Source: Candidatus Krumholzibacteriota bacterium (lineage in GTDB: Bacteria > Krumholzibacteriota > Krumholzibacteriia > LZORAL124-64-63). From it: a stretch of DNA of 42,823 nucleotides. Positions within the stretch are counted from its first letter, which is position 1; each line of letters begins with the position of its first letter. Shown here piece after piece: positions 4,871 through 42,823 of the stretch. Location of the stretch: the NCBI GenBank assembly GCA_039714075.1, contig JBDLKA010000022.1, positions 1-42,823 on the forward strand. Reading direction: 5' to 3'. A program made the translations under genes and the position numbers. The notes under the pieces were generated by a model, which saw only the letters and a program-made list of their open reading frames with translations, was not told the DNA's origin and did no database searches.

Positions 4871-4875
4871 GATTG

Positions 4876-4904
4876 TACCTCCCATGCACCCAACCCTGGA
4901 GGTA
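4876..4904 (+). promoter_or_regulatory. Hairpin sequestering the Shine-Dalgarno sequence in the HNH gene leader
   Basis: TACCTCC (4876-4882) is the exact reverse complement of GGAGGTA (4898-4904), which contains the SD just upstream of ATG 4909. Confidence 0.55.
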
Positions 4905-4908
4905 TATC

Positions 4909-5937
4909 ATGTCCGCTGTTTCCTACGTTCCCGACCAATCCGCCGCTCACGTTCATTCTTCTCTGCGCCGTTCGTTGAAGGCCATGGAGCTGGCCCGGCA
5001 GTGCGCCGTTCTATGGTTCGCCGAGGTCATGCGGCGAAGGTTGTATTGCGAGTTGGGCTATTCCTCCATCAACCAGTACGCCATGAAAGGTCTTGGGTTT
5101 TCCAAATCACGGACCGGTGATTTCATTCGGCTGGCCCGGCAGCTGGATGGCTTGCCGGCCGTGCGAGATGCCATGGTTTCCGGTGAGCTGGGATACACCA
5201 AGGCGCGGGAAATCGTCGGGGTGGCCACGCCCGAAACCCAGGACGAGTGGTTGCAGGCCGCCAAAAAACCACGGCAGGAATTGGTTCGCGAAGTGAAGAG
5301 AGTCAAGCGGGCAGCCCAGGTCGATCCCGGCCAAGGTGAACTTTTACCGGCTGCCCCCACCGTGGTCGCACCGAAGGAACTGCCGGTCCGTTTCCAGATG
5401 GATCTGACCCCCGAACAGGAAGCCCGCCGGTCCGCTTTGGTCGAGCGGCTCCACAAATTGGGCGGCGTCCCCAACGACAAGGCCGAGTTGGTGTTGGAAG
5501 CCCTGGCTTCTTTGGTGGAAACGAAGGAAAAGGCCCCCCGGGGGGCCCTCGCCGGGCGGCCGCCGGTACAAATCCATGTTCACGAAGAAGCCGGCAAAAT
5601 GACAGTGGAAACTGACGTCGGAAAGCGCGAGCTAAGCCGGGCCGAGGCCGAACGAATGAAATGCGACGCGGCCGTCTGTCGTAAAGGAGGCCATAATACA
5701 ACAACCATCCCTCCACGCGTGCGTCGCGAGGTTCTGGCACGCGACCGACACCGCTGCCAGGCTCCCGGGTGCGGAAGGACCCGGTTTCTCGAAGTTCACC
5801 ACAAGGTGCCGCGCTCTGGCGGAGGCGGCAACAGCCGGGAAAACCTGGTGACCCTCTGTGGTTCATGCCATCGGCTTTGGCATGAACGGGGCGCCGGCGC
5901 CATTCCGGATGCCCCGAACAAGGCTCTCATCGGCTAG
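4909..5937 (+). CDS. HNH endonuclease with DUF222/13E12-like helical N-terminal region
   Basis: C-terminal RDRHRCQAPGC...EVHHKVPRSGGGGNSRENLVTLCGSCHRLWHE (Zn-binding HNH); N-terminal LGYSSINQYA...GELGYTKAREI resembles DUF222-type proteins; strong GGAGGT SD. Confidence 0.85.
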   Translation: MSAVSYVPDQSAAHVHSSLRRSLKAMELARQCAVLWFAEVMRRRLYCELGYSSINQYAMKGLGFSKSRTGDFIRLARQLDGLPAVRDAMVSGELGYTKAREIVGVATPETQDEWLQAAKKPRQELVREVKRVKRAAQVDPGQGELLPAAPTVVAPKELPVRFQMDLTPEQEARRSALVERLHKLGGVPNDKAELVLEALASLVETKEKAPRGALAGRPPVQIHVHEEAGKMTVETDVGKRELSRAEAERMKCDAAVCRKGGHNTTTIPPRVRREVLARDRHRCQAPGCGRTRFLEVHHKVPRSGGGGNSRENLVTLCGSCHRLWHERGAGAIPDAPNKALIG

Positions 5938-27635: not shown

Positions 27636-28322
27636 TTACCGGTACAGGGACTTCAGGCTGCCGAAGGAGGTCTCTTCGGTGGCCACGGTGCAGATATCCA
27701 CGTTGGTCATACCGGGAGTATCCAGGGCACAGAAGGTGAAATCTCCCGTTTTCCAGAAAGTGCCGCACCTGATGGCATGGGCGGGCACATAGGTGCCGTC
27801 CGGGCCCAGAGTGGTGTCGCAGTAGGTCAAATCACCCGAACCGACGGTCTCGATCAGGGCCAGGCAGTCGACGACTCCGGTCCAGATGGGATTGTCGATC
27901 ACGCCGTCGTCATCGGTATCGATGTCGTCGGCAACCGCACCGGTGAACCCGGTCACCAGCAGGTGGGTCACGTTGTCACTGTTCTCGAAGTTGAGGGCAT
28001 TGCTGAGAACGGTCAGATCAACGGCATCCTCGCAAGCGACAACCCAGAGATCCTCGGTTACCAGGAAATAACCGTCGGCGCCGATCACGTAACCGGTCAG
28101 GTCGAGGGCGGTTTCCACGGTACCGCTGCCGGTCGCGCCATCGCCGATGACCACGTAGGTCAGGCCGTCGAGGCTTTCACCGGGACTGCCGTAAAGTTCG
28201 AAGTACTCGTTGTAATCCGAGCCACCCTGGTCGATCCGAATTTCATTGATCACGGCAGCGCCGGCGATCATCGGAACGAGAGCGAGACAGAAGACGGTGA
28301 ACATCACCTTAGAAAATCGCAT
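27636..28322 (-). CDS. Secreted lamin-tail-domain-like protein with C-terminal 'SFGSLKSLYR' motif
   Basis: Signal peptide; VINEIRID...EYFELYG (LTD-like), DTPG end motif, tail TVATEETSFGSLKSLYR; SD AGGAGG. Confidence 0.8.
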   Translation of the reverse strand: MRFSKVMFTVFCLALVPMIAGAAVINEIRIDQGGSDYNEYFELYGSPGESLDGLTYVVIGDGATGSGTVETALDLTGYVIGADGYFLVTEDLWVVACEDAVDLTVLSNALNFENSDNVTHLLVTGFTGAVADDIDTDDDGVIDNPIWTGVVDCLALIETVGSGDLTYCDTTLGPDGTYVPAHAIRCGTFWKTGDFTFCALDTPGMTNVDICTVATEETSFGSLKSLYR

Positions 28323-28605: not shown

Positions 28606-29451
28606 CTATCCCTTGACACTTCCCAAAGTCAGCCCCGAAACCAGATATCTGTTCAACACCAGGAACAGAATAACCACGGGTACGCACACCAGAAGCGACC
28701 CGGCGGCATAGTTGGCCCACTCGGTCTGGTAGGTGGTGAACAATGATTCCAGACCCAGGGGCAGCGTCATGAGTTCCTTGCTGGCCAGCATCACCCTGGC
28801 GACCATGAATTCACTCCACCCGGTCATGAAGGAAAAAAGCGCCGTGATCACCAGGGCCGGAGTACTCAACGGAAGGGTCACGCGGAAATAGGCCTGGAAG
28901 GGGGAACAGCCGTCGATCAGGGCGGCTTCGTTCAGAGCGACGGGAATGGTGTCGTAGTAGCCCTTCATGGTCCAGACGCAGAAGGGCAGCGCGGTGGCTA
29001 CGTATGCGACCATCACTCCGCCCAGGGTGTCGACCAGGTGCAGTTTGCGCATCATCAAATACAGGGGCAGCAGCAGCATGGTGGCGGGAAACATCTGGGT
29101 CATGAGGATGCCCTGCAAAGCCGCGCCGCGGCCGGTGAAGCGGTAGCGCGACAAAGCGAACCCCCCGAGGCTGGCCAGGGCCACGCCGATCAGGGCCGTC
29201 CCCAGCGACACGATCAGCGAGTTCCGCAGCCACAGGAAAAACGGTTTTTCGGTGAACATGATCCGGTAGGCATCGAAGGTGTGATTGTCCGGAATGAGTT
29301 TCAGATCGGTGCTGTAGAGCTGGTCCCCCGGGCGCAGGCTGATGCCCACGATCTGCAGGATGGGGAAAATGGAAAACAGCACGAACAACCAAACCAGCGC
29401 GTGCACCCACACGTGATTCCAGACACGGCCTGCCGTCAACCTCCGGGCCAT
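28606..29451 (-). CDS. Carbohydrate ABC transporter permease (MalG-like)
   Basis: Real start MARRLTAG at 29451 (TGATG overlap); WLRNSL, TQMFP, MKGYYDTIP..LNEAALIDG (EAA loop), SGLTLGSVKG. Confidence 0.92.
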   Translation of the reverse strand: MARRLTAGRVWNHVWVHALVWLFVLFSIFPILQIVGISLRPGDQLYSTDLKLIPDNHTFDAYRIMFTEKPFFLWLRNSLIVSLGTALIGVALASLGGFALSRYRFTGRGAALQGILMTQMFPATMLLLPLYLMMRKLHLVDTLGGVMVAYVATALPFCVWTMKGYYDTIPVALNEAALIDGCSPFQAYFRVTLPLSTPALVITALFSFMTGWSEFMVARVMLASKELMTLPLGLESLFTTYQTEWANYAAGSLLVCVPVVILFLVLNRYLVSGLTLGSVKG

Positions 29452-30329
29452 CAGTACGCCTCCTCGCGGGCCGCGCGGTTGTAGCCCTTCACGATGAACA
29501 CCAGGACCAGGAAGATGAACACGCTGAAGGCGGCCGCGTAACCGTAGCGGTAGTACTGGAAGGCCGCCTTGTAGACATAGGTGACCAGGATATGCGTCTT
29601 GTCCGCGGGCAGGCCCTGGTCGGTGACCAGCCAGATCACGTTCAGGTTGTTGAAGGTCCAGATCGTGCCCAGCACCAACGCCGGCAGCAGCACCGGTTTG
29701 AGCATGGGCAGGGTGATGCTGAAGAACCGGCGCACCGGCCCCGCGCCGTCGATGCGGGCGGCCTCGTACAGTTCCTGCGGAATACTCTGGAGCCCGCCCA
29801 GGGCTATCACCATGATGAACGGGAACCCGAGCCAGATGTTCGTGATCACCGGCGCCATGAAGGCCCAGAATTCGCTGGTGAACCAGGGCACGGCCTCGAT
29901 GCCGATCTTGCCCAGCATCAGGTTGACGGCCCCGTACTCCACGTTGAACATGCCGCGCCAGGTCAGCGCCGAGATGTACTGCGGCATGGCCCAGGGCAGG
30001 ATCAGCAGCGCGCGATAGATGTTGCGGCCGGGCAGCCTGCGGTTCAGCAGCAGGGCCGCCCCCAGTCCCAGCGTGAAATGGAACACCAGGTTGACGGCCG
30101 TCCAGGCGATGGTCTTGCCGAAGATGCGGTAGAAATCCTCTTCGCCGAACAGCCGGAAATAATGGGTCAGGCCGATCAGTTCCGGATTGCGGAAGTGGAA
30201 CATGTTCCAGTTGGTCAGGGATATGTAGACGTTGAAGAAGAAGGGATACGCCACCACGCCCAGCAACACCAGTGCGCTGGGCAGCAGGAACCAGAAAGCC
30301 AGACGGTTTTCGGTCCGGCCCGCGCTCAT
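29451..30329 (-). CDS. Carbohydrate ABC transporter permease (MalF-like)
   Basis: YRALLILPWAMP, NIWLGFPF, LQSIPQELYEAARIDGA, TFNNLNVI. Confidence 0.92.
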   Translation of the reverse strand: MSAGRTENRLAFWFLLPSALVLLGVVAYPFFFNVYISLTNWNMFHFRNPELIGLTHYFRLFGEEDFYRIFGKTIAWTAVNLVFHFTLGLGAALLLNRRLPGRNIYRALLILPWAMPQYISALTWRGMFNVEYGAVNLMLGKIGIEAVPWFTSEFWAFMAPVITNIWLGFPFIMVIALGGLQSIPQELYEAARIDGAGPVRRFFSITLPMLKPVLLPALVLGTIWTFNNLNVIWLVTDQGLPADKTHILVTYVYKAAFQYYRYGYAAAFSVFIFLVLVFIVKGYNRAAREEAY

Positions 30330-31591
30330 TCACGCATCCTTTCGATCTCGGTGGTGGCTTTGATCTGCATGGCCCGGGCAGCGTCCTCGGGGCTGAGTTC
30401 CCCGTTCATCACGCTCTGGTAGCTGGGGCGCATGGCGTCCCATACGGCGCGCATCTCCGGAACGATGGGCATGACGCGGCCCTTGGCGATCTGCTCGCGG
30501 CTGGCCAATAAAAACGGGTCATTCTGGATCTCTTCGACCTGCCCGGCGGCCCGATCCCCCGGCTGTACGCTCAGACCCTTGGCCAAGGCGATCTGAACCT
30601 CGGTTCCGGTCAGCCACTTCAGTAGTGCGGCCGTGCATCCACTGGTGGCCGGATCCATGTAACGATTTATGGAATAACACTTTGCAGACACCGCCGGTGT
30701 CGGCCACAAACCCGTGGCGGAAACTTTGGGAATGCTGGCCAACTGGATGTCGATCCCCGCGTCGCGGTAGCCTTCCCAGGACCAGGGCCCGTTGATGATA
30801 TAGGCCGCGCGGCCCTCCTTGAAAATGGTGTCGGCCAGAGGGTAATCGCATTCCAGGGGCACGACCTTCGCCTGTTTCAATCCGCTCAGGAAATCGAGGG
30901 CCCCCACCATGGCCGGCGTATCCAGGGTAGGCCAGGATTCATCGTCCATGACCCAACCGCCGAAGCCTCCCAGCCAGGGTACCAGCCAGAAGGGTTCCAG
31001 AAGGTTGAACACCAATCCGTATTGATCCGGCTTGCCGTTGCCGTCGGTGTCCACGGTAAGTTCCTGGAGCTGACGGAACCAGGCGTCCGTGTCCGTGGGG
31101 ATGCTATCAACCAGGGCCATGTTGCCAACCAGGGTCAGGTGATTGCCCACGTGATCGGGCAGGCCGTAGACATGGCCATTCAATACAGGAAGTGATTCGG
31201 GCTGGAACCGGTCGATTTCCTCCTGGGGAAGCAATTCCTCCACGGGCATGAGAAGACCCATGACGGACCAGGGCCCCAGCTTGTCGGACGGCCCGTACAC
31301 CAGATTGGGTCCCCCGTAGGCCAGGGCGGCGGTCTGGAACTGGGTCTGGAGGTCTTCGGTGCGGTAATGGACCCGCTCTATATTAAAGGATGCGAATTCG
31401 GGGTGGTCCCGGCGGAACTGCTCGACGTGCAGGTCGAACAGTTCCTGCTCCTTGGGATCCATCTGTTCCCAGACGATGACGCTGCGGCTGCGGTCCACAC
31501 GGCCGCAGGACAGCAAGCCGGGGATGAGACCCAGAACGATGAAAATGAAAACCGTATTACGAATGAATTTTTGGTCCCGCAGTTTTTTCAT
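30326..31591 (-). CDS. Sugar ABC transporter substrate-binding lipoprotein (maltose/maltodextrin MalE-like)
   Basis: Lipobox LLS-C; GPNLVYGPSD, FKEGRAAYIINGPWSW, MPIVPEMRAVW (MalE-like); start probably ATG 31591. Confidence 0.87.
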   Translation of the reverse strand: MKKLRDQKFIRNTVFIFIVLGLIPGLLSCGRVDRSRSVIVWEQMDPKEQELFDLHVEQFRRDHPEFASFNIERVHYRTEDLQTQFQTAALAYGGPNLVYGPSDKLGPWSVMGLLMPVEELLPQEEIDRFQPESLPVLNGHVYGLPDHVGNHLTLVGNMALVDSIPTDTDAWFRQLQELTVDTDGNGKPDQYGLVFNLLEPFWLVPWLGGFGGWVMDDESWPTLDTPAMVGALDFLSGLKQAKVVPLECDYPLADTIFKEGRAAYIINGPWSWEGYRDAGIDIQLASIPKVSATGLWPTPAVSAKCYSINRYMDPATSGCTAALLKWLTGTEVQIALAKGLSVQPGDRAAGQVEEIQNDPFLLASREQIAKGRVMPIVPEMRAVWDAMRPSYQSVMNGELSPEDAARAMQIKATTEIERMRE

Positions 31592-31715
31592 GGCCGGGAC
31601 CATACACCGATTTCCAGGTTGAAACAACATTTCACCAATTCCCCCTGTTAAAAAAGAGGATTTCAGTGGAATTCGATTGAATCAGCGGTCTCCGATGCGG
31701 TAGATTCCCCCAACT

Positions 31716-34700
31716 ATGAAAATCGTTCCACGCCTCTCTCACGTCCGCGCTTTTCATCTTCCGGTCGTGATCATTATTCTGCTGCTGGCCGCACTCGCGG
31801 TGGCCGCTCCTTTCCATCATCCCACCATTGACGGGACCATCACGGCTGACGGGACCGATTGGGATCCCGCAGACCTGGTTGTCGATGACAGTGGGGATGA
31901 CGATCTGACGCGTTCCTCCAACGTTCGTCGGCTGTGGTGCACCTGGGACCAGGACAGCCTCTATGTGGCGGTCACCTACCAGGATCTGGGAGCCAATGAG
32001 GCCCTGTCGGTTTTTCTGGATCTGGATCGGGGCGTCGGTCCCGACAACGCCGGCATCCTCGACAATTTCCCGGGCAACTTCCTGATGCCCGAGGGGCATC
32101 GCTTCGAGCTGGTCCTGGGACGGCTGCCCTCCGAGGGCCTTGGCGGTAATCCACCCCTGAGCCGGCTGGTCACCGACGACAACGGCACGACCGTCAGCCT
32201 GGCCTCGCAAGTCAGCGCCGCCCAGGGAATGAGTTCGGAGACCAAAACCGCCGCCGGGGAGAACGCGCGCCTTCAGTTCTGGCTCAATGCGGAGATCGCC
32301 CTGCCCTGGTCCGCCATCTATCCCGACCAGGGAACCACGGTACCTCCCCATGCCATCATCAAGGCCGTGGCAGTGTCAACCGTCGCTCACGCCGACAGCA
32401 ACGGCATAGATAGCGCCCCCGACAACGAGGGGCTGGACCGCAGCGGGCCGGACCCTGTGCTGCTGGCGAACATGGCCCCCTCGGTGATCGACGCCGACGG
32501 GGACGGCCAGCCGGACCCGGCCGACGCCACCATCAGCGGAACCGTGACCCTGCCCCAGGATCCCGGTTCGACCACGGTGACGGTGCAGGCGGAACTCATC
32601 GATTTCGCGGGGAACCGGGATCCCGGCGCACCCCTGTCTGTCGTCACGACCGGGGAAGGCATTCGCACCTGGACCCTGGCCCGGTTGCCGGCGGGCACCT
32701 ACCGGATAACCACCAGTTCCCTCGGCTATTTTCAAGACCAAACCACCGTCCAGGTCACGCAGAGCCAAGTGGTCACCGGCATCGACCGTGGATTGATTAA
32801 AGCCACGACAATCAGCGGTTTCATCGGTTTCGAGTCCGGCCCCGGCGGAAAGGGGACCGTGACCCTGGAGAAAGCCGACGGCACACATGTGGAAACCCAG
32901 GAGTTCGACTTCAGCCAGACGGGAGAAAGCTACACCTTCTTTCCGGATGAAGGCGGAGACTTCGTCGTCAGGGTCGATGTCGAGACCTACATGCCGGACG
33001 AAGCCGTGGTGTCCGTCGCCACGGGCGAGGAACAGGCCAACGTCGACTTCACAATGGTCCGCCAGACCGAAATCAGCGGCGCCGTATCCTTCCTGGAGGG
33101 TCCGGGCCAACCGGGAACCATCTACTTCCTGGACAGTGAAGGCAACGAGTTGGACTTCGTGGGCTTCCCCCTCAACGGCGGCCCCTTCCAGTTCTTCACC
33201 CCCGTCGGCGGCAGCTTCACCCTGTCAGCCAACACCAACGCCGGCGAGGTCATCGGGATTTACGCCCCCCTCGCAATGGATGTCGATGTCACGCTGGGCC
33301 AGGACATCACCGGCCTCGCCGTGGAAATGAGTCTGGCTGCCTTCGTGACCGCATCAATCTCCTTCGAAGGCCCGCCCGCCGAGGGTCGTCTGACCCTCAC
33401 CGACAACAACACCGGCGTGGTCATGCTGGACGGAGCGATCAACCCCGTGGAAGGGGACAGTGCCAGCATCTATCTCGGGCCCAGTGAATACCGGCTCGAT
33501 CTGGAAGCCCTCGGGTACTCTCCCCGGACCATCGTCTTCAACGTCACCGAGGCGGACACCTCTCTCGGAGTCCTGCTGCTTTCCGCGGTGCGGGCGACCC
33601 ATCTGGAAATCATCAACGACGACGGTGAAACCCAGCCCGAGATCCGAGCCACGGCCTACGACCCGGCCGACGATCCCTGGACCAGCAGCCGGGTCCTGCT
33701 GGCCGCCCGGGATGACGAGGGCCGTGACGACCTTTACGACCTGGACGGCAGCCTCCAGGGTTTCCGTCTGTCCGCCCTCAAGATGGACGACCTCTCCCCC
33801 CCCAACGGGAATCCCGTATTCTACCCGACCGACCAGGAAGCCCCGGTCGACAGCGTGGTGAGTTTCGTTGATGGGCGCGCCGAATTCTGGATGAGCGACA
33901 CCGCCGTCGAGGTCCTGCGGGTGTATCTGGCCCAGCCGAACAAGGCGCCTATTGCCGGGCGCATCGTAGTGGCTTTCCTTGATCCGGAACCCCGGACCGT
34001 TCTTTTGACGGCCGACCGGGACACCCTGGTCGCCGACGACATGGAAACCATCACCGTCACCGCCCAACTCTTCGACACGGCCGAAAATCTCAGTCTCATC
34101 CCGGATATCCCGGTGACCTTCTCGGTGGCTTCGGGAAGTTCGGGCAAAGGCCAGTTCGTCATTCCCACCGTTCTGACAAATGCCGAGGGGACAGCCTCCG
34201 CCTCCATTTCCGCCACCGGCGCCGGCCTTTTGCAGATCACCGCCACGGTGGTCATCAACAACCGGGTCCTTGATGTCGTGGCCTATGATCTGGATAGCGG
34301 AGAAACCGTTCTGCCTCTCTACTCGGTGGCAGGTCCGACTTCGGGCTGGAAATTGTCCCTGCCCAGTAATCTGAGCGATCTCGTGACCCCCGTCGCGGTG
34401 AATGCCCAGACCGTGGACGATTTCGGCAATCCCACAGCGGACCAGGGACGCACCATCTCGTTATCCGCTGACCCGGCCGGCCTGGGAACTTTCGACCCAA
34501 TCATCGCCACTTCCAATGAGTTCGGACGGGCGTCCAGCACCTATACCCCCTCCGGAACAGCCGGACTTGTCTTCATCACCGGGACCAGCGGCGACCTCGC
34601 CGGTGCCGAAACAGGCCTGCGCCTGCGGGACCTGGTCGTGATCCCCGACCCGGTCTGGTACGAAGAGCCCCTGACCCGGCAGACTTTCGACAAGACCGAC

Positions 34701-37700
34701 CTGACCGCCCTGGTCGTCGCCAACACTCCCGACGAACTTCTCCTGGAGATCCCTTTCCAGTCCGACTGGAACGGCCTCCAACTGCACATTGCCTTCGAAA
34801 CCAATTCCGATGCCGCGGGCGCTTCAGGGGACCCCTTCGGAATGCCGGTCAACTACGGGCACGCCTTGAAACCGGACTATGTCCTGACAACCAAGTACTC
34901 GGCCAATGACTACGGGGACTTCCGTCGCTGGAACACCGGTTCTTCGAGCTGGGATTTCTGGAATCCGACCACCGGCGGCTACGAGGGCAGCGGCAACATC
35001 CAGGGTGAATGGGTGACCAAGGAGGCCGACCGCGTCCTCATCCGGATTCCCAAGGAACCCTTTGGCGGCACCTTCCCGCCCACCATTCTGCTGGAAGCCT
35101 ATCTGACCCAGGAGGACGGGGAAAAGCGTTCGGCCTTCGATTCGGCCCCCCAGGATTCAACCCTGAACCTGACTTTCGACTACGAGGATCCCCAGCCGGG
35201 CGACTGGGATTCGACCAAGGGCCCGGTCACTCTTGAAGCATGGGGGCGCGAATATGTGGTCCGGACCGACTTTCCTGTTCCTCCGGCGGTGGAAAACGTC
35301 AGCGTAACCCCTGCGGAAATGGATGCGGGTGCAACGCTGATCCTGGAGGCCTTGATCACCGAATCCGTCAACGGCATCGGGGATGTCGTGGCGGACCTGA
35401 GCGCCATGGGAGGCAGTTCGCTGGCCCGCATGTACGACGACGGGGATGCCGGGCACGGCGATTCGGTGGCCGGCGACGGGGTGTACAGCCTGCTGACCCT
35501 GGTGCCCATCTCGAACCCCGGCGGGGCCCAGGACCTGATCGTCAACGCCTTCGACGGTGAGAACATCTGGGCCAATACCGGTATCGCCACCATCAACGTG
35601 ACTGCCCTGGTCACGCCCATCATCGTGGCCACCGACCCGGTCGGCGACGACCATGGTCCGAACCAGCCGGGGGTCCGGCGGAAATTCTACACCTACCCCA
35701 CCAACATCGCCTTCGTGCAGGGTGGTTTCGACCTGACCGGGCTGACAGTTTTCGAAACCAAAGCCAACGTCGGCGGCGAGTTGATCGACATGATCGCCTT
35801 CCAGGTGTCGATGGGGGACTTCCCCGACCCGGCTGATCCGGGCACGGCCAACTGGAACCCGCTCTACGCGGACCTGAACATCACCAAGATCGATATCCTG
35901 ATCGATAACGCCCCCGGGGGCTCCATCTCCTCGCTGCCCTGGAGGCAGGCCGCCTTCCAGCCCTGGGACGCCTGGGACTGGGCCATCATCATGGACGGTT
36001 GGTACAAGGCCCTGATTCCTTCGCTGGGCCAGAACACGGTTGATTCCTGGCGCGACAACGCCCTGCGCAACGACAAGAATATTCTGCTCCTGAGCGATCC
36101 TGACCTGGATACGGTCACGGCGCTTGTTTCCAAGTCCGCCCTGGGCGACCCCACCCCCGAGGACATCGCCAAATGGGACATCGCCGTCTGCATGGCCAGT
36201 CATGATTTCGGAGGAGAAGAGGTCCTCGGGGGCGTCCGCTGGGTGGAGGAAGCCCGTAGCGAGTGGCAATTCGGGGGCGGTCAGAGCGGCGACCGTGACA
36301 GCAACTACATGGACCTGCTTCTGGTGGCCGGGGCCGGTACGGTGGCTGAACCGGAGGAATTCAAGACCCAGGAAGAAATCCTGGATTACGACTCGCCCGA
36401 CGCCTTGGCCCGTATGGAACGTGGAATGACCCCGGTGGCCATCGAGATGACCCCTTTCAAGGACAGCGGCCCTCCGGTCATCGATCCGGGCGGCGATGGT
36501 TCCGTCGTCACCAAAGTCGCCCCCATCCTGGACACCCCGTTGGCCATGGCGATCAACATCAGCGACGACAACCGGGTCGCCGAGGCCACCTTCCGGTATC
36601 GCTCCACCGGATTCGAAGAGGAAGGCTGGCAACGTGAAGTCCCCATGGGGTTCCTGGGCAGAGACGCCTGGGTTGTGGACATCCTGCCCAGTTGGCTCGA
36701 TTCAAACCTGGTCTACTCGCCCATCGACAGCACCCGGTACCTGGAATTCGAGGTCGAAGCCTCCGATCCGGGCGATCCGAACGCCGATCCGCCCGTGGCC
36801 CCCAAGACTTCAATCTCTCCGGTGACCACCCTTCAGATCGAAAAAAATGCCATCTGCCGCCCTCGTGACAGTGATTTGGACTTCGGGGATCTGCTGTTGA
36901 TTCAGGTCGAGGGCGCCCTGTTGAACGTGCCCGACAAGCTGCGCCGGGATCTGGTCCGCCGGCACATCGCCGAAGTCTGGACCGGTGGACAGGTCAACCC
37001 CGACACGATGGGCGCGGACATCGAACTTCAATGGGACGTGTGCAATATCGCGGAAGAGATCAGGAACGCCCCCAGAATTCCCGACGGTCGACCCATCGGT
37101 GTATTCAGGCAGGTATACATTGCCACTTCCGACACCCTGGGAGGCTACCTCGATTACGGAGGCCCGCTACCCGGCAACGCACAGCTTTCCCTGCACTACC
37201 CCCAGGAGTGGGTACCGGAGGGCATCGACGAAAACCTTATCGCCCTTTACCAGTACAACTCTGAATCGGACCGCTGGATCAAGGTCGGCGGAAACGTCAC
37301 CCCCACGGGCAACAACGTGACCGCGACCATCAACCAGGTGGGAACCTTCGGTCTTTTCGTGACCGAGGCCAACTCGCACGACTCCGGCGAGGTCATCTCG
37401 GGCATCACCATTTCGCCCAATCCCTTCTCCCCCAACGGGGACGGGCTCTATGACGACACCAACATCTCCTTCTTCCTGACCCAGGAGGCGACGATCACCG
37501 TCGAGGTCTACAACATCTACGGGGACCGCAAGAACATCCTGGCGCAGACCTTCCCCTTCTCCGGCAGCGATCTCACCGACCCCGTCCCCCGGCGCGTGCC
37601 GGGGTTGATCTGGGACGGCACCGAATCCAACGGGAAACCCGTCCCCTATGGAATCTATATTCTGAGGGTCCTGGCCACCTACAATTTCGGCGGAGGAACC

Positions 37701-37742
37701 CGGACCGTCCGCAGCAACCATCCCGTGGCGGTGATCAGATGA
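31716..37742 (+). CDS. 2008-aa secreted multidomain protein: DOMON-like modules, beta-sandwich/Ig repeats, choice-of-anchor-X-like motif, glucodextranase-C-like DOMON, FlgD-Ig/T9SS-like C-terminal domain
   Basis: Signal peptide; LWCTWDQDSLYVAV (DOMON-like); repeated ISG.V...G.Y beta-sandwiches; Big_1-like TNAEGTASA and SNEFGRASSTY; MYDDGDAGHGDSVAGDGVYS; DPVGDDHGP...YTYPTN...FDLT; C-terminal SPNPFSPNGDG...WDGT...GIYILRV...VAVIR. Confidence 0.8.
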   Translation: MKIVPRLSHVRAFHLPVVIIILLLAALAVAAPFHHPTIDGTITADGTDWDPADLVVDDSGDDDLTRSSNVRRLWCTWDQDSLYVAVTYQDLGANEALSVFLDLDRGVGPDNAGILDNFPGNFLMPEGHRFELVLGRLPSEGLGGNPPLSRLVTDDNGTTVSLASQVSAAQGMSSETKTAAGENARLQFWLNAEIALPWSAIYPDQGTTVPPHAIIKAVAVSTVAHADSNGIDSAPDNEGLDRSGPDPVLLANMAPSVIDADGDGQPDPADATISGTVTLPQDPGSTTVTVQAELIDFAGNRDPGAPLSVVTTGEGIRTWTLARLPAGTYRITTSSLGYFQDQTTVQVTQSQVVTGIDRGLIKATTISGFIGFESGPGGKGTVTLEKADGTHVETQEFDFSQTGESYTFFPDEGGDFVVRVDVETYMPDEAVVSVATGEEQANVDFTMVRQTEISGAVSFLEGPGQPGTIYFLDSEGNELDFVGFPLNGGPFQFFTPVGGSFTLSANTNAGEVIGIYAPLAMDVDVTLGQDITGLAVEMSLAAFVTASISFEGPPAEGRLTLTDNNTGVVMLDGAINPVEGDSASIYLGPSEYRLDLEALGYSPRTIVFNVTEADTSLGVLLLSAVRATHLEIINDDGETQPEIRATAYDPADDPWTSSRVLLAARDDEGRDDLYDLDGSLQGFRLSALKMDDLSPPNGNPVFYPTDQEAPVDSVVSFVDGRAEFWMSDTAVEVLRVYLAQPNKAPIAGRIVVAFLDPEPRTVLLTADRDTLVADDMETITVTAQLFDTAENLSLIPDIPVTFSVASGSSGKGQFVIPTVLTNAEGTASASISATGAGLLQITATVVINNRVLDVVAYDLDSGETVLPLYSVAGPTSGWKLSLPSNLSDLVTPVAVNAQTVDDFGNPTADQGRTISLSADPAGLGTFDPIIATSNEFGRASSTYTPSGTAGLVFITGTSGDLAGAETGLRLRDLVVIPDPVWYEEPLTRQTFDKTDLTALVVANTPDELLLEIPFQSDWNGLQLHIAFETNSDAAGASGDPFGMPVNYGHALKPDYVLTTKYSANDYGDFRRWNTGSSSWDFWNPTTGGYEGSGNIQGEWVTKEADRVLIRIPKEPFGGTFPPTILLEAYLTQEDGEKRSAFDSAPQDSTLNLTFDYEDPQPGDWDSTKGPVTLEAWGREYVVRTDFPVPPAVENVSVTPAEMDAGATLILEALITESVNGIGDVVADLSAMGGSSLARMYDDGDAGHGDSVAGDGVYSLLTLVPISNPGGAQDLIVNAFDGENIWANTGIATINVTALVTPIIVATDPVGDDHGPNQPGVRRKFYTYPTNIAFVQGGFDLTGLTVFETKANVGGELIDMIAFQVSMGDFPDPADPGTANWNPLYADLNITKIDILIDNAPGGSISSLPWRQAAFQPWDAWDWAIIMDGWYKALIPSLGQNTVDSWRDNALRNDKNILLLSDPDLDTVTALVSKSALGDPTPEDIAKWDIAVCMASHDFGGEEVLGGVRWVEEARSEWQFGGGQSGDRDSNYMDLLLVAGAGTVAEPEEFKTQEEILDYDSPDALARMERGMTPVAIEMTPFKDSGPPVIDPGGDGSVVTKVAPILDTPLAMAINISDDNRVAEATFRYRSTGFEEEGWQREVPMGFLGRDAWVVDILPSWLDSNLVYSPIDSTRYLEFEVEASDPGDPNADPPVAPKTSISPVTTLQIEKNAICRPRDSDLDFGDLLLIQVEGALLNVPDKLRRDLVRRHIAEVWTGGQVNPDTMGADIELQWDVCNIAEEIRNAPRIPDGRPIGVFRQVYIATSDTLGGYLDYGGPLPGNAQLSLHYPQEWVPEGIDENLIALYQYNSESDRWIKVGGNVTPTGNNVTATINQVGTFGLFVTEANSHDSGEVISGITISPNPFSPNGDGLYDDTNISFFLTQEATITVEVYNIYGDRKNILAQTFPFSGSDLTDPVPRRVPGLIWDGTESNGKPVPYGIYILRVLATYNFGGGTRTVRSNHPVAVIR

Positions 37743-38632
37743 CCGGTCGCAGACACATCCTCCGCTCGGTGGCGGGATTTGTCCTGCTGGCGCTGCTGGC
37801 CGGGGTGGCTCCCACCGCCCGCGCCGATTTCCGCCATGCCCGCATGGGCGCCCGGCCCCGGGCCCTGGGTTCGGCCTTCGTATCCCTGGCCGACGATGCC
37901 AACGCCGCCTACTGGAATCCGGCGGGCCTGGTGCGCGACAACAGGGCCTCCCTGATGCTGACCAATTCCTGGATGTACGGCATCTCCGACCTGACCAACA
38001 CCTATCTGGCGGTGGACCTGCCCCGCCTGGGCGATTTCCACTTCGGCGCCAGCTGGGTGCGCCTGGGGATCAAGGATCTCTATTACGAGGACACCATCAA
38101 TCTGGCCGTGGCCGGCAACATGCCGTTTTTGGAAGGACTGTCCCTGGGTTTGACCGGCAAGATGTTCCTTTTGGCCGCACCGGGTTATGAAAAATACAAC
38201 GACCCCCACTACAACGGCGGGGACCAGGGATTCTCCTTCGATCTGGGCGCATTGTACGACAGCGGGGGCCCCTGGACCCTCGGGGCCACGGTCTACAATC
38301 TGGTGGAGACCAAGCTCCAACTTCTCGAAAGCACCTCCGACCCCGATCCGATCTTCACCGAATGGGCTGCTGGCGGCAGTTACCTCTTCCGTGAAACGCT
38401 TCTGGTGACCGCGGACTTCAGGAACCGGGAAGGCGAATTCAACAACATCATTCTGCACGGGGGCGCCGAAATCTGGTTTTACGACGCGCTGGTCCTGCGC
38501 TCGGGTCTGGACAAGGGACTGGTGACCCTGGGGGCCGGCCTGCAGGACGATCATTGGCAGGCCGATTTCACGCTCAAAACGGAAAAAGCGCTGGGCAACG
38601 TCTACATGCTTTCTTTCACGGTGAGGAAGTAG
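37739..38632 (+). CDS. PorV/PorQ-like (FadL-related) outer-membrane beta-barrel
   Basis: Signal peptide then MGARPRALGSAFVSLADDANAAYWNPAGL, followed by amphipathic beta-strands; ATGA overlap with the upstream gene. Confidence 0.8.
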   Translation: MTGRRHILRSVAGFVLLALLAGVAPTARADFRHARMGARPRALGSAFVSLADDANAAYWNPAGLVRDNRASLMLTNSWMYGISDLTNTYLAVDLPRLGDFHFGASWVRLGIKDLYYEDTINLAVAGNMPFLEGLSLGLTGKMFLLAAPGYEKYNDPHYNGGDQGFSFDLGALYDSGGPWTLGATVYNLVETKLQLLESTSDPDPIFTEWAAGGSYLFRETLLVTADFRNREGEFNNIILHGGAEIWFYDALVLRSGLDKGLVTLGAGLQDDHWQADFTLKTEKALGNVYMLSFTVRK

Positions 38633-38640
38633 GGGTGCGG

Positions 38641-40245
38641 ATGATACGGAAGACATCCCGAATCGGCCTCGTCCTGATGGTTTGCTCCCTTGCGCTCCTG
38701 TTCACTTGTCCGGCCTTGGCAGCCAACAAGGTCGAAGGTTTCTACGAGGCCGAAGTCAGCGCCCAGAAGGAGAACGGCAAGTGGCTGTTCGGCCCTCCGG
38801 GCGGCAACGGCATGCCCAAACATTATGCCGAACTCAAATTCTGGTCCTGGCCCAACGACAAATTCGAGGTCTTCGCCAAGGTACGTGCCGAATCAAATCG
38901 GGAGGACGACCGTTCCCCCGCCGTGGACTACTACGCGCCCCCCTGGTTCAGCGGTGAAGGCCACATCAAGCTGCGGCAGAACAAATACGAGGCCTATCTT
39001 TTCTACCGGCAAAACCGGTTCTACATCAACGACCAGCCCCTGCTGCGCCTGGTCGGCGACGGAAACCTGAAAAACGATGATTGGGGTCCCAAGGCCCAGG
39101 GCGTGAGGTTCGATTTCTGGGAGACCGACCTGGGAATCAAGAACATGGGCGGGACGTTCATCGTCAGCGACGACGGCGGCACCTTCAATTTCAATGAATC
39201 ACCCGTCCCAAACGGGGCCGACAGCAAGATCTTCCGACTCAGGCACAAGGCCTGGGACGGGCGTATCGAATCGGCTGCCATGTACCTCCGGAAGGACTGG
39301 ACCGACACCTCCCAGGACGACATATGGACAGACCTTCTGTCCCTGATGCACAACAACGTCTATTCCTTCGATGTGGCCTTCACACCACGCAATCTGATCA
39401 ATACCGGCCTGCGCCTGGGCCCCATCAACCTGGAACAATCGCGCTGGACCACCGAAATGGCCTGGAGCCAGCGACCCTACCATGAGTTCATCTTCGGGGA
39501 ATCGCGTCACCGCGCGAGGGCGATTGCGGTCGAAGAGCGTGATATCCACATCGGTGATTTTACCATCCACTCCTGGTACAACGACTTCGGTGAGGACTTC
39601 CGCAGCTACGTCTCCAACCGGTTCGAAGAGGGCGGCGAATACAACAAGATCCAGAAGCACGCCGAGCTGATCTGGTTGGTTCCACGCAAGTCCGTAACCA
39701 CCAAACTCATCTGGGATTCCCAACGCCAGCGGACCCTAGACGAGGAAGGCGGAGGGCTGCGGCCTTCCGAGGAGTGGTACGGCGAGATCTACATGGAGTT
39801 CATCAATGGGTTCAAGGCCCGCTTCGCCTACAAGAACTGGCACGGGTACGATAAGGATTCGGCCATCAGCGACTTCCGGACGTATCCCGACTGGTTCGGG
39901 GAGGTTTCGGTGGAGAATTTCCTGGCCAAGATCCGCCTGCAGGGCCGCATCCACGACGCAGGAACCTTCCGTCAGGTAACCATCTACGGTTTCGATATGA
40001 ACGTGAACCTGACCGAGCGGCTCAAGGGGTACCTGCGGGCCATGAACGTCAACGAGGAAACCGAAGCCCGGCACACGATCTTCGCCCAGCTCAAGTACGA
40101 CATCGGCTGGGGCGCGGAGTTCTATTTCGAATACGGCGACGCGGGCCAGTCGGACAATCTTGTCTATACGGACTGGTTCGTTAACGAAGGAAGCGATTCC
40201 AACCTGACCGACCGGTTCAAGGTGTTGGTCAAGGCCTGGTTCTGA
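38641..40245 (+). CDS. Putative outer-membrane beta-barrel protein
   Basis: Signal peptide ending ALA; very aromatic-rich alternating strands; C-terminal FKVLVKAWF (BAM-type terminal Phe); start ATG 38641. Confidence 0.72.
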   Translation: MIRKTSRIGLVLMVCSLALLFTCPALAANKVEGFYEAEVSAQKENGKWLFGPPGGNGMPKHYAELKFWSWPNDKFEVFAKVRAESNREDDRSPAVDYYAPPWFSGEGHIKLRQNKYEAYLFYRQNRFYINDQPLLRLVGDGNLKNDDWGPKAQGVRFDFWETDLGIKNMGGTFIVSDDGGTFNFNESPVPNGADSKIFRLRHKAWDGRIESAAMYLRKDWTDTSQDDIWTDLLSLMHNNVYSFDVAFTPRNLINTGLRLGPINLEQSRWTTEMAWSQRPYHEFIFGESRHRARAIAVEERDIHIGDFTIHSWYNDFGEDFRSYVSNRFEEGGEYNKIQKHAELIWLVPRKSVTTKLIWDSQRQRTLDEEGGGLRPSEEWYGEIYMEFINGFKARFAYKNWHGYDKDSAISDFRTYPDWFGEVSVENFLAKIRLQGRIHDAGTFRQVTIYGFDMNVNLTERLKGYLRAMNVNEETEARHTIFAQLKYDIGWGAEFYFEYGDAGQSDNLVYTDWFVNEGSDSNLTDRFKVLVKAWF

Positions 40246-40269: not shown

Positions 40270-42747
40270 ATGTTTGCGAAAGTATCACGAGTCCTGGTTC
40301 TGACGGTGGCAATTGCAGCCGTTCTGCTGACCACCGGTCCTCCGGGCGCGGCGCTTGCGGCGGCTCCAGAAAAAGGCGAAGACGGCATCGTGTTCTCCTA
40401 CCACGCCCCAAAGGCCCAGGCTGTGTTTCTGGCCGGCGACTTCAACAACTGGAATGCCCAGGACCTGGCCATGGTCCGCCAGGATTCGGGCGACTGGACC
40501 CTTACGATTGCCCTCGACTCCGGATCCTATGAATACAAGTTCATTGCCGACGGCAATTGGTTGGAAGACCCCGACAATCCCGAAAAGAAATCCGATCCGT
40601 TCGGTGGCTCCAATTCGGTCGTCACCGTCGGCAGTGACGGCGCCGTTGTCGCGGCCGCCGGTGCGGTCGCTCCGGTGGCCACCGGTGAAAAGACCGACGC
40701 CGCCGTACCCGATGATTTTTCCGTGGGCGCGCCCCGTGCCGTCGATGGCGGGATTCTTTTCACCTACCGTGATCCCGGTGTGGGAACCGTCAACCTGGCC
40801 GGATCCTTCAACGGCTGGAACGCCGACGATATTCCCCTGACGAATGACGGCAAGGGCAACTGGGCCGTGGTACATTCGCTCGATTCGGGCGAGCACGAAT
40901 ACAAATTCGTGGTCGATGGCGCCTGGTTCGCCGATCCGGAAAACCCGGACACCAAGGCCGACCCCTACGGTGGCGCCAATTCCCTGGTGATCGTTGACGA
41001 CGGCGGCCAACTCATCGCCGCGCCGGAAACCGCGGACGGCGATGGCGACGGCCACAAGCCGAATACGAATCTCAACGCCCGCCTGTATCTGGGTGGCCGG
41101 TACCTTACCCGTTTCGAATTCGCCAAGAACGTGGAGACCCAGGTTGGGGACACCGCCATGTTTGATCCCCGTTACCGCCTGCAGCGGCCCAGCCAGAGCG
41201 TGGACCTGAATTTCGAAGCCGAAGTAAGTGATATCGCCGCGACCTTCATGCGGATCCGGTTGGACTCGGACCAGAACATCATCCAGAACAACATCGCCGG
41301 ATTCCTGGACGAGGCCAACCTGACCATCGAACCGAGTAATTTCAAACTGAAGGCCTATTGGAACCAGGAGGTCTATACCGGAGAAGACCTGCTGCTGTTG
41401 GGCGGCAACACCGACCTGCCCGGAACCATTTTCCACGACCACCTGGATTACGGCAAGGGCAGCGCGGGCGCCCTGTTCGAGGCCGATCCGGTCGGGGTCA
41501 AGACGGTGCTGTTTTTCGCCAACGTGCACAATCACGACTATTACGGCGACCCGAAACTGTTCGACAACACCGGTGAAGACAAGGTGGGCCTGCGGCTGTC
41601 CCGGAAGTTCGGCCCGGTGGAAATCGGGACCCCGGTGTGGTTGGAGCGCTCGGTTGTCGAATTGGATTTGGGCGATATTGTCGGTTTGGCCGACACCGGC
41701 ATCCCCGCCCTGAACGAATATCTGAAAACAGACGACGACAGTAATATGTTCAATACCGAAACCAGGAATTTCAACTTCGGTCTGGATCTGCGGTTCGACC
41801 TGACCGACAAGCTGATGTTCGGCGCCCAAGGCAACTACGTCGACATCAAGCAGGCGTTTGTGGCCGGAAACCACGCCGGCCTGGACAACAACTGGGCCCA
41901 GATCGACGTGCCCTTCCTGGAGCGGGACCGCCGCATGTACATGGGCCAGGTCGATTTCCGGCCGACCGAGAACATGGAATTCAGCCTCAAGCACATCGTG
42001 GCGGACATGAATGGAGCGGATCCGGACCAGCGAAGAGTGGCCTTCGAGTTCCGCGACCAGAATCCGACCAACAACAGAATCTATTTCACAATCGAGGACA
42101 GCCCTGCCGCCGTTGAGGCCGATTCGACGGACCTGACCTGGGACTGGCACAAGGATGACCTGGACCTGGGTGTCTGGCTGCGCCGGGTGTCCCGCGACTG
42201 GGACTACGAATCGTCGGATCTGACCGTTCCCGAAGACGAATCCCTGACCAGCCGAACCGAGGAAATCTACAAGGCCTCGCTCATGGCGGGCCTGGGAAAC
42301 CCCGGGGATTTCCTGGGACACGGTGAAATCGAATTCGCCTACGTTACGGCCGATGCCGGTGTGGCCGCGAAAAAAATCGACACCTATGAGATGATCTTCC
42401 GCTACGATCGCGACCTGTCCCGCAACACGGGCCTTATCGCGGATCTGCGTTTCATCCAGTATGATTTCGAGGGGAACGATTCCAACGGTGAGTTGATTGC
42501 CGACAGCCCCGACTACTTCGCCCCCTTTGCCGGGTTCCGGTACACACCGATCAGGAAGCTGGAACTGGTTCTCGCCTACGGTGTGGACCCGCTCGAATAC
42601 TCGATCGATTATGAGGGTCGACATCTGGGACGCTGGTGGTTCCGCCAGAACTACCTGTTCAATAATTCGGACGCGACCCAGTTGGACGCCGAGAACTATC
42701 TGTCCAAGGCGGATGTGTTCACCCTGCGGGCCCAACTGCTCTTCTAG
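40270..42747 (+). CDS. Tandem CBM48/AMPK-type glycogen-binding domains fused to a putative outer-membrane beta-barrel
   Basis: Signal peptide; two repeats LAG[D/S]FN[N/G]W...[Y/H]EYKF..DG.W..DP.NP....DP[F/Y]GG.NS (about 40384-40630 and 40750-40995); beta-strand-rich remainder ending FTLRAQLLF. Confidence 0.8.
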   Translation: MFAKVSRVLVLTVAIAAVLLTTGPPGAALAAAPEKGEDGIVFSYHAPKAQAVFLAGDFNNWNAQDLAMVRQDSGDWTLTIALDSGSYEYKFIADGNWLEDPDNPEKKSDPFGGSNSVVTVGSDGAVVAAAGAVAPVATGEKTDAAVPDDFSVGAPRAVDGGILFTYRDPGVGTVNLAGSFNGWNADDIPLTNDGKGNWAVVHSLDSGEHEYKFVVDGAWFADPENPDTKADPYGGANSLVIVDDGGQLIAAPETADGDGDGHKPNTNLNARLYLGGRYLTRFEFAKNVETQVGDTAMFDPRYRLQRPSQSVDLNFEAEVSDIAATFMRIRLDSDQNIIQNNIAGFLDEANLTIEPSNFKLKAYWNQEVYTGEDLLLLGGNTDLPGTIFHDHLDYGKGSAGALFEADPVGVKTVLFFANVHNHDYYGDPKLFDNTGEDKVGLRLSRKFGPVEIGTPVWLERSVVELDLGDIVGLADTGIPALNEYLKTDDDSNMFNTETRNFNFGLDLRFDLTDKLMFGAQGNYVDIKQAFVAGNHAGLDNNWAQIDVPFLERDRRMYMGQVDFRPTENMEFSLKHIVADMNGADPDQRRVAFEFRDQNPTNNRIYFTIEDSPAAVEADSTDLTWDWHKDDLDLGVWLRRVSRDWDYESSDLTVPEDESLTSRTEEIYKASLMAGLGNPGDFLGHGEIEFAYVTADAGVAAKKIDTYEMIFRYDRDLSRNTGLIADLRFIQYDFEGNDSNGELIADSPDYFAPFAGFRYTPIRKLELVLAYGVDPLEYSIDYEGRHLGRWWFRQNYLFNNSDATQLDAENYLSKADVFTLRAQLLF

Positions 42748-42759
42748 AAAGGAACGGAA

Positions 42760-42823
42760 ATGCTGAAAAAATCAGGAATTTTCGTTCTGGGCACGCTTCT
42801 CCTTGCCGGTGCCATGGTATCCG
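42760..42823 (+). CDS. Start of another exported protein (truncated by the window edge)
   Basis: SD AAAGGA then MLKKSGIFVLGTLLLAGAMVS..., a signal-peptide pattern starting 12 nt after the previous stop. Confidence 0.6.
   Translation, partial: MLKKSGIFVLGTLLLAGAMVS

Follow-up and report, generated by a model that had tools for sequence, protein, structure and literature searches.

The stretch of DNA analysed here (the window) is the whole of a 42,823-bp contig, C22, of a Candidatus Krumholzibacteriota genome bin (4.06 Mb, 92% complete). The gene under study is an intact open reading frame (ORF) at 40270..42747 of the forward strand. It starts with ATG, has a GGGAG resembling a ribosome-binding site 8 nt upstream, and encodes a protein of 825 aa in which two predicted glycogen-binding modules are followed by what is probably a large outer-membrane beta-barrel. 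We refer to this protein as the CBM48 barrel. Among the sequencing runs listed for it, two were of DNA, both from one marine-metagenome study, and none of RNA. The parts of the gene are as follows:

40270..40359 (+), signal peptide, aa 1–30; translation read by eye, predicted cleavage between AALA and AAP
40372..40635 (+), CBM48/AMPK-beta-like module 1, aa ~35–122; Pfam stretches 41–122 (AMPK1_CBM) and 35–111 (CBM_48)
40732..41004 (+), CBM48/AMPK-beta-like module 2, aa ~155–245; second Pfam stretch, alignment to 4yef, 1z0m and 4zhx_B
41062..42747 (+), predicted large outer-membrane beta-barrel of an unmodelled family, aa 265–825 plus stop, ending ...VFTLRAQLLF; indirect evidence

As read from the translation, the protein begins with MFAKVSR and a hydrophobic run that leads to the cleavage site, a type-I signal peptide without a lipobox Cys. 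The original prediction, made from the sequence alone, had placed two CBM48-like repeats after this signal peptide, and Pfam searches bore it out. In the test for a CBM48/AMPK-beta glycogen-binding module (PF02922, PF16561), the AMPK1_CBM model matched in two stretches with an E of 8.5e-29 and a score of 100 bits, against a cut-off of 26.8. CBM_48 likewise matched in two stretches (E 2.9e-23, 82.4 bits, cut-off 22.4). NCBIfam matches to GlgB and branching enzymes were confined to the CBM48 part and lay far below their cut-offs.

Repeat 2 aligned to structures of the carbohydrate-binding module of AMPK beta-1, 4yef and 1z0m (E ~1e-10). When the numbering was counted along the full-length chain 4zhx_B, residues W183, K212 and W219 were found to correspond to W100, K126 and W133 of AMPK beta-1. 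Mutating the latter residues is reported to abolish or weaken glycogen binding by AMPK beta-1 (PMC6274970). All three positions were invariant in 54 homologues of the CBM48 barrel (the 54-row alignment A1). In the translation of repeat 1, W61, K90 and W97 occupy the glycogen-binding positions, as judged by comparison with repeat 2. As judged from sequence, the two repeats are confirmed as bona fide CBM48/AMPK-beta modules in which the known glycogen-binding residues are kept.

The C-terminal region and its family

The rest of the protein (aa ~260–825) matched no Pfam or NCBIfam family, the best hit being OMP_b-brl at an E of 0.09. No catalytic family was matched in this 560-aa part, and nothing in it points to an enzyme. 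When the barrel part was searched against PDB sequences, both as a single sequence and as a 19-row profile, no match appeared at E ≤ 10. The evidence for a barrel is indirect.

The last residue, Phe825, was invariant in A1. Among 82 homologues the final residue was F in 79, the three exceptions being truncated matches that covered 72%, 65% and 27% of the query. Computed from alignment-averaged hydrophobicity, the period-2 hydrophobic moment over residues 265–825 exceeded that of 300 column shuffles by 5.3–6.6 standard deviations. For the soluble controls the corresponding z values were −1.1 (MalE-like protein), 0.3 (GH13) and −0.5 (the CBM48 part itself). The helical period of the barrel part was below chance, and a lag-2 peak in the autocorrelation of conservation was confined to the three putative outer-membrane proteins. 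The earlier description of this region as a beta-strand pattern with a terminal Phe and no catalytic domain thus agrees with these results.

Structural neighbours in the ESM Atlas were examined over residues 264–825. A cluster of CBM48 plus barrel proteins was found at TM 0.68, and further neighbours at TM 0.52–0.59 comprised MtrB/PioB, TonB-receptor barrels, DUF6029 and an SLH outer-membrane protein cluster, the last at TM 0.52. Weak matches to barrel families were also seen among the 54 relatives (OMP_b-brl_2 in three, OMP_b-brl in two, Autotransporter in one, BBP2 in one). A strand count from amphipathicity gave 23–30 for the barrel; the count was unstable, and the PorV-like control described below gave 7–12, too few for PorV-type barrels, which have 14 strands, so that no use can be made of it. 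Mean-field covariation (110 sequences, effective number ~70–86) gave no usable contact signal, the anti-diagonal and diagonal tops being 1.57 vs 1.39 with an sd of 0.26. From sequence patterns and the Atlas model, residues 265–825 are probably a large outer-membrane beta-barrel and not an enzyme.

The 82 homologues, obtained by a search with the barrel part, were 31–73% identical to the window protein over that part. CBM48 was on the same chain in 79 of them, and the three others come from contigs no longer than 2.8 kb, so misassembly does not account for the fusion. A count of core motifs in the 82 proteins gave two CBM48 modules in 48, one in 31 and none in 3. In databases, the homologues, which derive from bins of Krumholzibacteria and Latescibacterota, are named only 'hypothetical' or 'glycogen-binding domain-containing protein'. 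A profile of the barrel part alone (A6, 19 rows) returned 76 proteins and no other domain partner in a word- and length-limited search.

Full-length matches were found in metagenome bins of Krumholzibacteriota, Eisenbacteria, Latescibacteria and Zixibacteria, and in bins labelled Gemmatimonas or Fibrobacteraceae. Matches in Cloacimonadota, WOR-3 and Gemmatimonadota bins reached only part-way into the barrel. Membership in one CBM48 plus barrel family was indicated by full-length collinear homology together with position in the gene module described below. Full-text literature searches found no published description of the CBM48-barrel fusion or of this module.

Established transporter families were also considered. 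Neither Plug (PF07715) nor TonB_dep_Rec (PF00593) matched the protein at E ≤ 0.1 or any of the 54 relatives at E ≤ 1. The Plug model detected the true receptors of the same genome. With both models lacking a match, identity as a TonB-dependent transporter was rejected. Plug, TonB_dep_Rec, LamB and SusC/D families were likewise absent among the 71 proteins from the flanks of relatives' loci that were scanned with Pfam. The LamB maltoporin model (PF02264) found nothing in the protein, nor in the whole 92%-complete genome at E ≤ 0.01, and its E. coli control was positive. The classical autotransporter model (PF03797) missed the window protein and matched a single relative of the 54, at an E of 3.5e-6. 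Finally, the DUF6029 model (PF19494) missed the CBM48 barrel at E ≤ 10 and hit only a 674-aa ORF on contig C12. Comparison of profiles showed no homology to DUF6029 (probability 0.1% and 1.4%), the hhalign value against a 33-row DUF6029 alignment being 0.1%. Fold-level likeness is all that remains of this candidate.

DUF6029 bears on the notion that the barrels export a self-made alpha-glucan exopolysaccharide, in the manner of PgaA, BcsC, AlgE or Wzi, with the CBM48 modules guiding the chain from the periplasm. The family appears among the Atlas neighbours by feature as well as by structure, and it has been tied by HHpred to Wzi-like polysaccharide barrels (PMC9603273). Against this stand the profile comparisons just given, and the fact that the DUF6029 model matches another gene of the genome instead of the two barrels. 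The scanned flank proteins, moreover, include an importer and hydrolases but no glycosyltransferase or synthase. We hold such an export role to be highly improbable.

The true DUF6029 protein of this genome (G000:C12:13202-14506, minus strand) scored 96 bits. Of 121 genomes sampled from the phylum, 56 carried the DUF6029 family, in places separate from the starch module.

The gene module and its alpha-glucan context

The window proteins were compared with 76 related loci by tblastn. Synteny counts were limited to the 23 loci in which the barrel part was represented by 300 aa or more; the others were CBM48-only or weaker matches. In the window, the CBM48 barrel is the fourth gene of a tight run on one strand, with a divergent set of importer genes on its left:

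28606–29448 (−), MalG-like ATP-binding cassette (ABC) permease; NCBIfam MalG 1.4e-53, below cut-off; Pfam BPD_transp_1
29451–30329 (−), MalF-like ABC permease; NCBIfam MalF 6e-50, below cut-off; Pfam BPD_transp_1
30326..31630 (−), MalE-like maltose/maltodextrin-binding protein; PDB 6ffl_A, NCBIfam MalE, Pfam SBP_bac_8
31716..37742 (+), giant non-catalytic surface protein, 2008 aa; Pfam CarboxypepD_reg, Big_1, Glucodextran_C (aa 1303–1560) and a CHU_C/FlgD_ig tail
37739..38632 (+), PorV/PorQ/PorP-like small outer-membrane barrel, 297 aa; NCBIfam PorV_fam, PorVQ2, T9SS_PorP_fam
38641..40245 (+), 534-aa exported protein ending ...KAWF, a putative second large barrel; hhalign paralogy, period-2 z 4.5
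42760..42823 (+), first 21 codons of the next gene (MLKKSGIFVLGTLLLAGAMVS...), 12 nt after the CBM48 barrel gene, the contig end cutting off the rest; sequence

The gene for the 534-aa barrel lay directly upstream of the CBM48 barrel gene in all 22 assessable loci. A PorV-like gene was upstream in 21/21 and a giant gene in 20/20, and the order giant, PorV-like, barrel, barrel was kept in each of those 20. Directly downstream, a small CBM48 lipoprotein gene was found by tblastn in 23/23 loci.

When the 534-aa protein was compared with the CBM48 barrel by BLASTP as single sequences, nothing was found. Profile comparison by hhalign of A6 with an alignment of the 534-aa family (A7, 22 rows) gave a probability of 95.3% and an E of 2.3e-8 over 172 columns, starting from the mature N-terminus of both. 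Repeat runs gave 93.8% in local mode and 86.9% in global mode, the latter over 463 columns. With A1 columns the probability was just 40%, and with a more diverse alignment it was 94–95%. In control runs against the PorV-like and DUF6029 profiles, it did not exceed 1.7%. As far as profiles can tell, the predicted 534-aa barrel is a remote paralogue of the C-terminal part of the CBM48 barrel. The A7 profile collected 106 members in a word- and length-limited search, all of them 'hypothetical' and without a Pfam domain; 103 of the 106 end in F or Y.

CBM48 is carried by only one of the two related large barrels. The paralogous neighbour suggests a two-barrel unit, which is unusual. The original prediction had described a porin with built-in glucan-binding domains. 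Its CBM48 modules and barrel-like C-terminus were upheld, but the protein is not self-contained, being one of two paralogous barrels in a five-gene module.

The small barrel scored 63.6 bits with PorV_fam, under the cut-off of 90, and the start of its gene overlaps the stop of the giant gene by 4 nt. Searches of the PDB with the sequences of the giant and PorV-like proteins gave no match. Nine of nine further giant orthologues had Ig-like modules and Glucodextran_C, the latter at E 1e-25 to 4e-38, and no catalytic family. The tails of seven of seven orthologues matched CHU_C, a type B type-IX signal, along with FlgD_ig. The CHU_C tail of the window giant itself scored 25.9 bits against a cut-off of 27.

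These two upstream genes open a different explanation, namely that the PorV-like barrel and the two large ones serve to export the giant and keep it attached, as a type-IX-like complex, and conduct no sugar. The tail of the giant and the overlap with the PorV/PorP-like gene fit such a role, as does the gene order kept in all 20 assessable loci. According to PMC9143113, cargo whose C-terminal domain (CTD) is of type B is bound in Bacteroidota by PorP/SprF-like barrels. SprA_N was matched in a 2234-aa ORF of the same genome; a GldM search of the genome gave no match, its control was silent too, and the search is uninformative. However, both barrels occur in four WOR-3-like loci that lack a tailed giant and a PorV-like gene, and one of these (L074) also has a CBM48 protein. 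Pure secretion would also leave two features unexplained, the CBM48 in every complete family member and the CBM48 lipoprotein next to it. In some genomes, furthermore, the module is co-oriented with malEFG. We consider a role confined to secretion or anchoring quite unlikely.

Two side observations concern these genes. Weak PorV-like paralogues (G000:C79:7579-7749 and G000:C41:6115-6345; L144, L145) lie 2–5 kb downstream of Plug-domain matches on the same strand, a hint that, in this organism, other outer-membrane transporters too may be paired with PorV-like barrels. A segment of the giant (aa 32–262, 31716–32500) recurs with ~30% identity at the front of stand-alone CarboxypepD_reg proteins of 450–617 aa (L074:4579-6132, L058:6940-8790), which sit just after barrel/lipoprotein genes in WOR-3-like loci. 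It may be through its N-terminal ~260 aa that the giant cooperates with the barrels.

At the position of the truncated last gene, relatives encode a CBM48 lipoprotein of 128–153 aa or, in Eisenbacteria-type loci, one of 259–268 aa with two CBM48 modules. In 19 sequences the lipobox Cys was invariant, as was an R-x-P-x-P motif that follows it closely. The remainder of the gene was not found in the assembly of the same genome. Complex prediction was carried out with sequences of L009, the closest named relative. Its barrel (aa 36–825) and its own CBM48 lipoprotein (aa 35–153) gave an ipSAE of 0.00, which is evidence neither way.

The context of alpha-glucan uptake claimed at the outset was found both in the window and among the relatives. 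The divergent MalE-like protein matched 6ffl_A at an E of 4e-89, E. coli MalE at ~1e-22, and NCBIfam MalE at 1.8e-29, the last below its cut-off. GH13, GH57 or GDE genes were present within 10 kb in all 15 loci that had at least 4 kb of downstream DNA. The 71 flank proteins include GH13 amylases with 3–5 CBM48 modules, CBM20 proteins, GH57, the debranching enzyme amylo-1,6-glucosidase, MalK and stand-alone Glucodextran_C proteins. In a genome of the same genus (G106), malG, malF and malE are followed by the giant, PorV-like, barrel, CBM48 barrel and lipoprotein genes and then by GH13-CBM48, GH13 and MalK. A matching amylase pair occurs on contig C112 of the window's own genome. In divergent genomes of the same class, the module precedes MalE/F/G-like genes on the same strand at L102 and L105, with the arrangement reversed at L103 and L104.

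The GH13-CBM48 and GH57-CBM48 enzymes were seen, on reading their sequences, to have type-I signal peptides and no type-IX tail. Because such a signal peptide comes without an export tail, the enzymes are probably periplasmic, and chains long enough for CBM48 would therefore reach the periplasm.

Some neighbours in these loci deserve mention in their own right. A 228-aa ORF without a family match (window 27636–28322, minus strand) adjoins the MalG-like gene, and a counterpart with 64% identity occupies the same place in G106. Right after the MalE-like gene, L031:16167-16973, L034:16143-16916 and L046:10942-11715 encode exported Glucodextran_C proteins of 258–269 aa. The stand-alone Glucodextran_C proteins of Eisenbacteria-type loci matched at E 1e-33 to 6e-41, and the same module was present in every giant examined. 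Three proteins of 339–830 aa (L014:12571-14934, L012:15984-18473 and L024:15828-16844, all on the minus strand) have an FlgD_ig (type-IX-like) tail and no other family. These FlgD_ig-tailed proteins, which lie within relatives' alpha-glucan loci, are candidate surface enzymes or binders of an unknown kind.

A proposed route for alpha-glucan uptake

Our preferred reading, to which we give a probability of about 0.5, is that the protein is the glucan-binding barrel of a multi-part, TonB-independent outer-membrane apparatus for uptake of the alpha-glucans starch, glycogen and maltodextrin, with capture by CBM48 in the periplasm. The tailed giant would be exported, held at the surface on the PorV/PorP-like barrel, and meet the polymer there. 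One or both of the paralogous large barrels would pass alpha-glucan chains across the outer membrane. On the periplasmic side, the two CBM48 modules of the barrel and the CBM48 of the adjacent lipoprotein would bind the incoming chain and block its sliding back. Such capture could work as a passive ratchet that, without TonB, biases chain movement inward. Sec-exported CBM48 amylases would then trim the chain, and the MalE-like protein would hand the products to the MalFG(K)-like importer.

N-terminal extensions of barrels inserted by the beta-barrel assembly machinery (BAM) are periplasmic as a rule. A conduit with periplasmic capture is favoured because of this rule and because the enzymes are probably periplasmic.

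A different explanation is surface display, in which the barrel would be mainly an anchor. Its N-terminal CBM48 modules would reach the surface, for example threaded back through the lumen, and, along with the lipoprotein and the giant, hold starch there like SusE/SusF; import would go through the 534-aa paralogue or elsewhere. Weak SusF_SusE matches do occur on the CBM48 part, with an E of 5.9e-4 in the window protein and in 11 of the 54 relatives. The neighbours include a surface-targeted giant with a type-IX-style tail and a PorV-like barrel, and the linker from the second CBM48 to the first predicted strand, ~20 residues as read from the translation, is long enough to cross the membrane. 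Display of this kind would, however, go against the BAM rule. It would also sit poorly with the lack of an autotransporter-type architecture, the Autotransporter family being matched in a single one of the 54 relatives, and with CBM48 amylases that have no outer-membrane export tail. We regard it as unlikely.

A bolder form of the preferred reading was also considered, in which the two barrels and the CBM48 lipoprotein form a glycan translocon that threads long alpha-glucan chains, their diffusion being rectified by a periplasmic cluster of CBM48. The barrel would contribute two modules to that cluster, the lipoprotein one or two and each amylase three to five. We put this form forward tentatively, with the odds against it. 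If true, it would amount to 'selfish' uptake of whole starch chains without TonB or ATP at the outer membrane, and to a system for starch, distinct from LamB and SusCD, in Krumholzibacteriota, Eisenbacteria, Latescibacteria, Zixibacteria, WOR-3 and allies.

Several results weigh against a TonB-independent conduit with periplasmic capture. Eight Plug-domain receptors are encoded elsewhere in the genome, and any of them might import maltodextrins. The Atlas model of the exact protein is of moderate quality (pLDDT 0.60, pTM 0.55), and the periplasmic placement of CBM48 is drawn by analogy solely from the general rule for BAM barrels. Across the 54 homologues, even where identity falls to 35%, the barrel part has almost no indels, and its conservation is highest in polar motifs. 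Such indel-free polar conservation is odd for a porin and may mark a partner interface, a plug or a specific lumen; given the rigidity and the polar motifs, the barrel could be plugged or filled by a partner and not an open channel.

The four WOR-3-like loci (L054, L058, L068, L074) also count here. By tblastn they hold both barrels and a protein that resembles the first 260 aa of the giant (CarboxypepD_reg), and Pfam confirmed a one-CBM48 barrel in L058 and L074 and a small CBM48 protein in L074. Their neighbours are housekeeping genes, and in the available flanks there was no PorV-like gene, tailed giant, amylase or importer. Since these four lack it, the link to a starch locus is not universal.

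Among known systems, the CBM48 barrel and its module are functionally nearest to LamB/MalS/MalEFGK, in logic to SusCDEFG, and architecturally to the ScrY/DcaP porins and OmpM. In E. coli, LamB lets maltodextrins pass without TonB. With that system the module shares a passage for maltodextrins in the outer membrane, predicted in our case, beside a MalE/F/G/K-type importer and an exported amylase. The barrel part, however, has ~560 aa as against ~420 aa for LamB. In addition, the CBM48 barrel has fused CBM48 modules, a paralogous partner, and a CBM48 lipoprotein and a giant surface protein nearby.

The Bacteroides SusC/D/E/F/G system is likewise a starch locus with an outer-membrane barrel, glycan-binding lipoprotein(s), surface binders and amylases. 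Unlike in Sus, the loci studied here have no Plug/TonB_dep_Rec or SusD-like family, and binding modules are fused to the barrel itself. Uptake across the inner membrane is by a major facilitator superfamily carrier in Sus, whereas an ABC importer is found here.

The ScrY/DcaP barrels, which are 18-strand trimers, provide the nearest precedent for the idea of a hand-off, and no sequence relation between them and the CBM48 barrel was found. Porins with an N-terminal extension are reportedly the subject of Dumas et al. 2000, 'Extended sugar slide...'. In ScrY/DcaP the extension is a coiled coil, not a bona fide carbohydrate-binding module. For these substrate-specific porins, PMC6173795 describes an N-terminal periplasmic extension that is thought to guide the substrate to the inner-membrane system.

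In OmpM/SlpA-type SLH-barrel proteins, an N-terminal polysaccharide-binding domain is followed by a C-terminal barrel, as in the CBM48 barrel. In OmpM, a periplasmic SLH domain binds a wall polymer and the barrel lies in the outer membrane; the protein is both a tether and a nutrient channel (PMC10628300). By this precedent, the CBM48 modules might fasten the outer membrane to an alpha-glucan, periplasmic or wall-linked, by binding to it, and the shared architecture and the SLH cluster among the Atlas neighbours agree with a tether. The CBM48 barrel differs from OmpM in having CBM48 instead of SLH and a catabolic setting (amylases, debranching enzyme, MalEFGK), not one of envelope biogenesis. 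We know of no wall-linked alpha-glucan in these phyla. The barrel part was present, mostly in single copy, in just 57 of 151 sampled genomes of the phylum, a distribution too patchy for a core envelope tether. We consider this role very unlikely.

A CHU_C-tailed giant gene followed directly by a PorV/PorP-like barrel gene is shared with the type-IX pairs SprB-SprF and PG1035-PorP, and this likeness concerns the two upstream genes only. SprB-SprF is given in PMC9143113 as an example of type B CTD cargo with a partner barrel. In our case the window tail and the PorV_fam match are below curated cut-offs, the organisms are outside Bacteroidota, and the CBM48 barrel itself has no known type-IX counterpart. 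With MtrB/PioB, DUF6029 and TonB-receptor barrels, the likeness is at the level of the fold in the Atlas model; to DUF6029 there is no sequence or profile relation, and the CBM48 barrel has no Plug domain.

How fragments of polysaccharide cross the outer membrane is largely unknown in diderms outside Proteobacteria and Bacteroidota. Here a bona fide carbohydrate-binding module and a predicted outer-membrane barrel occur on one chain, in a gene set that is conserved across several uncultured phyla. If the preferred reading is true, the set would represent a third design for starch uptake and a simple case of binding-driven (ratchet) import. It would also provide an annotation marker of alpha-glucan use in these phyla, whose copies of the genes now go by 'hypothetical' or 'glycogen-binding domain-containing'.

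In the window, no Rfam family or tRNA was found, and scans for promoters and terminators gave nothing above chance. Two long minus-strand ORFs without a Pfam family show codon bias typical of genes, one at 5975–8842 (955 aa) and one at 3–1934 (643 aa, cut by the contig end). An HNH endonuclease/DUF222 ORF at 4873–5937 on the plus strand has a third-position GC of 0.69, compared with ~0.8–0.9 in its neighbours, and may be a mobile insertion.

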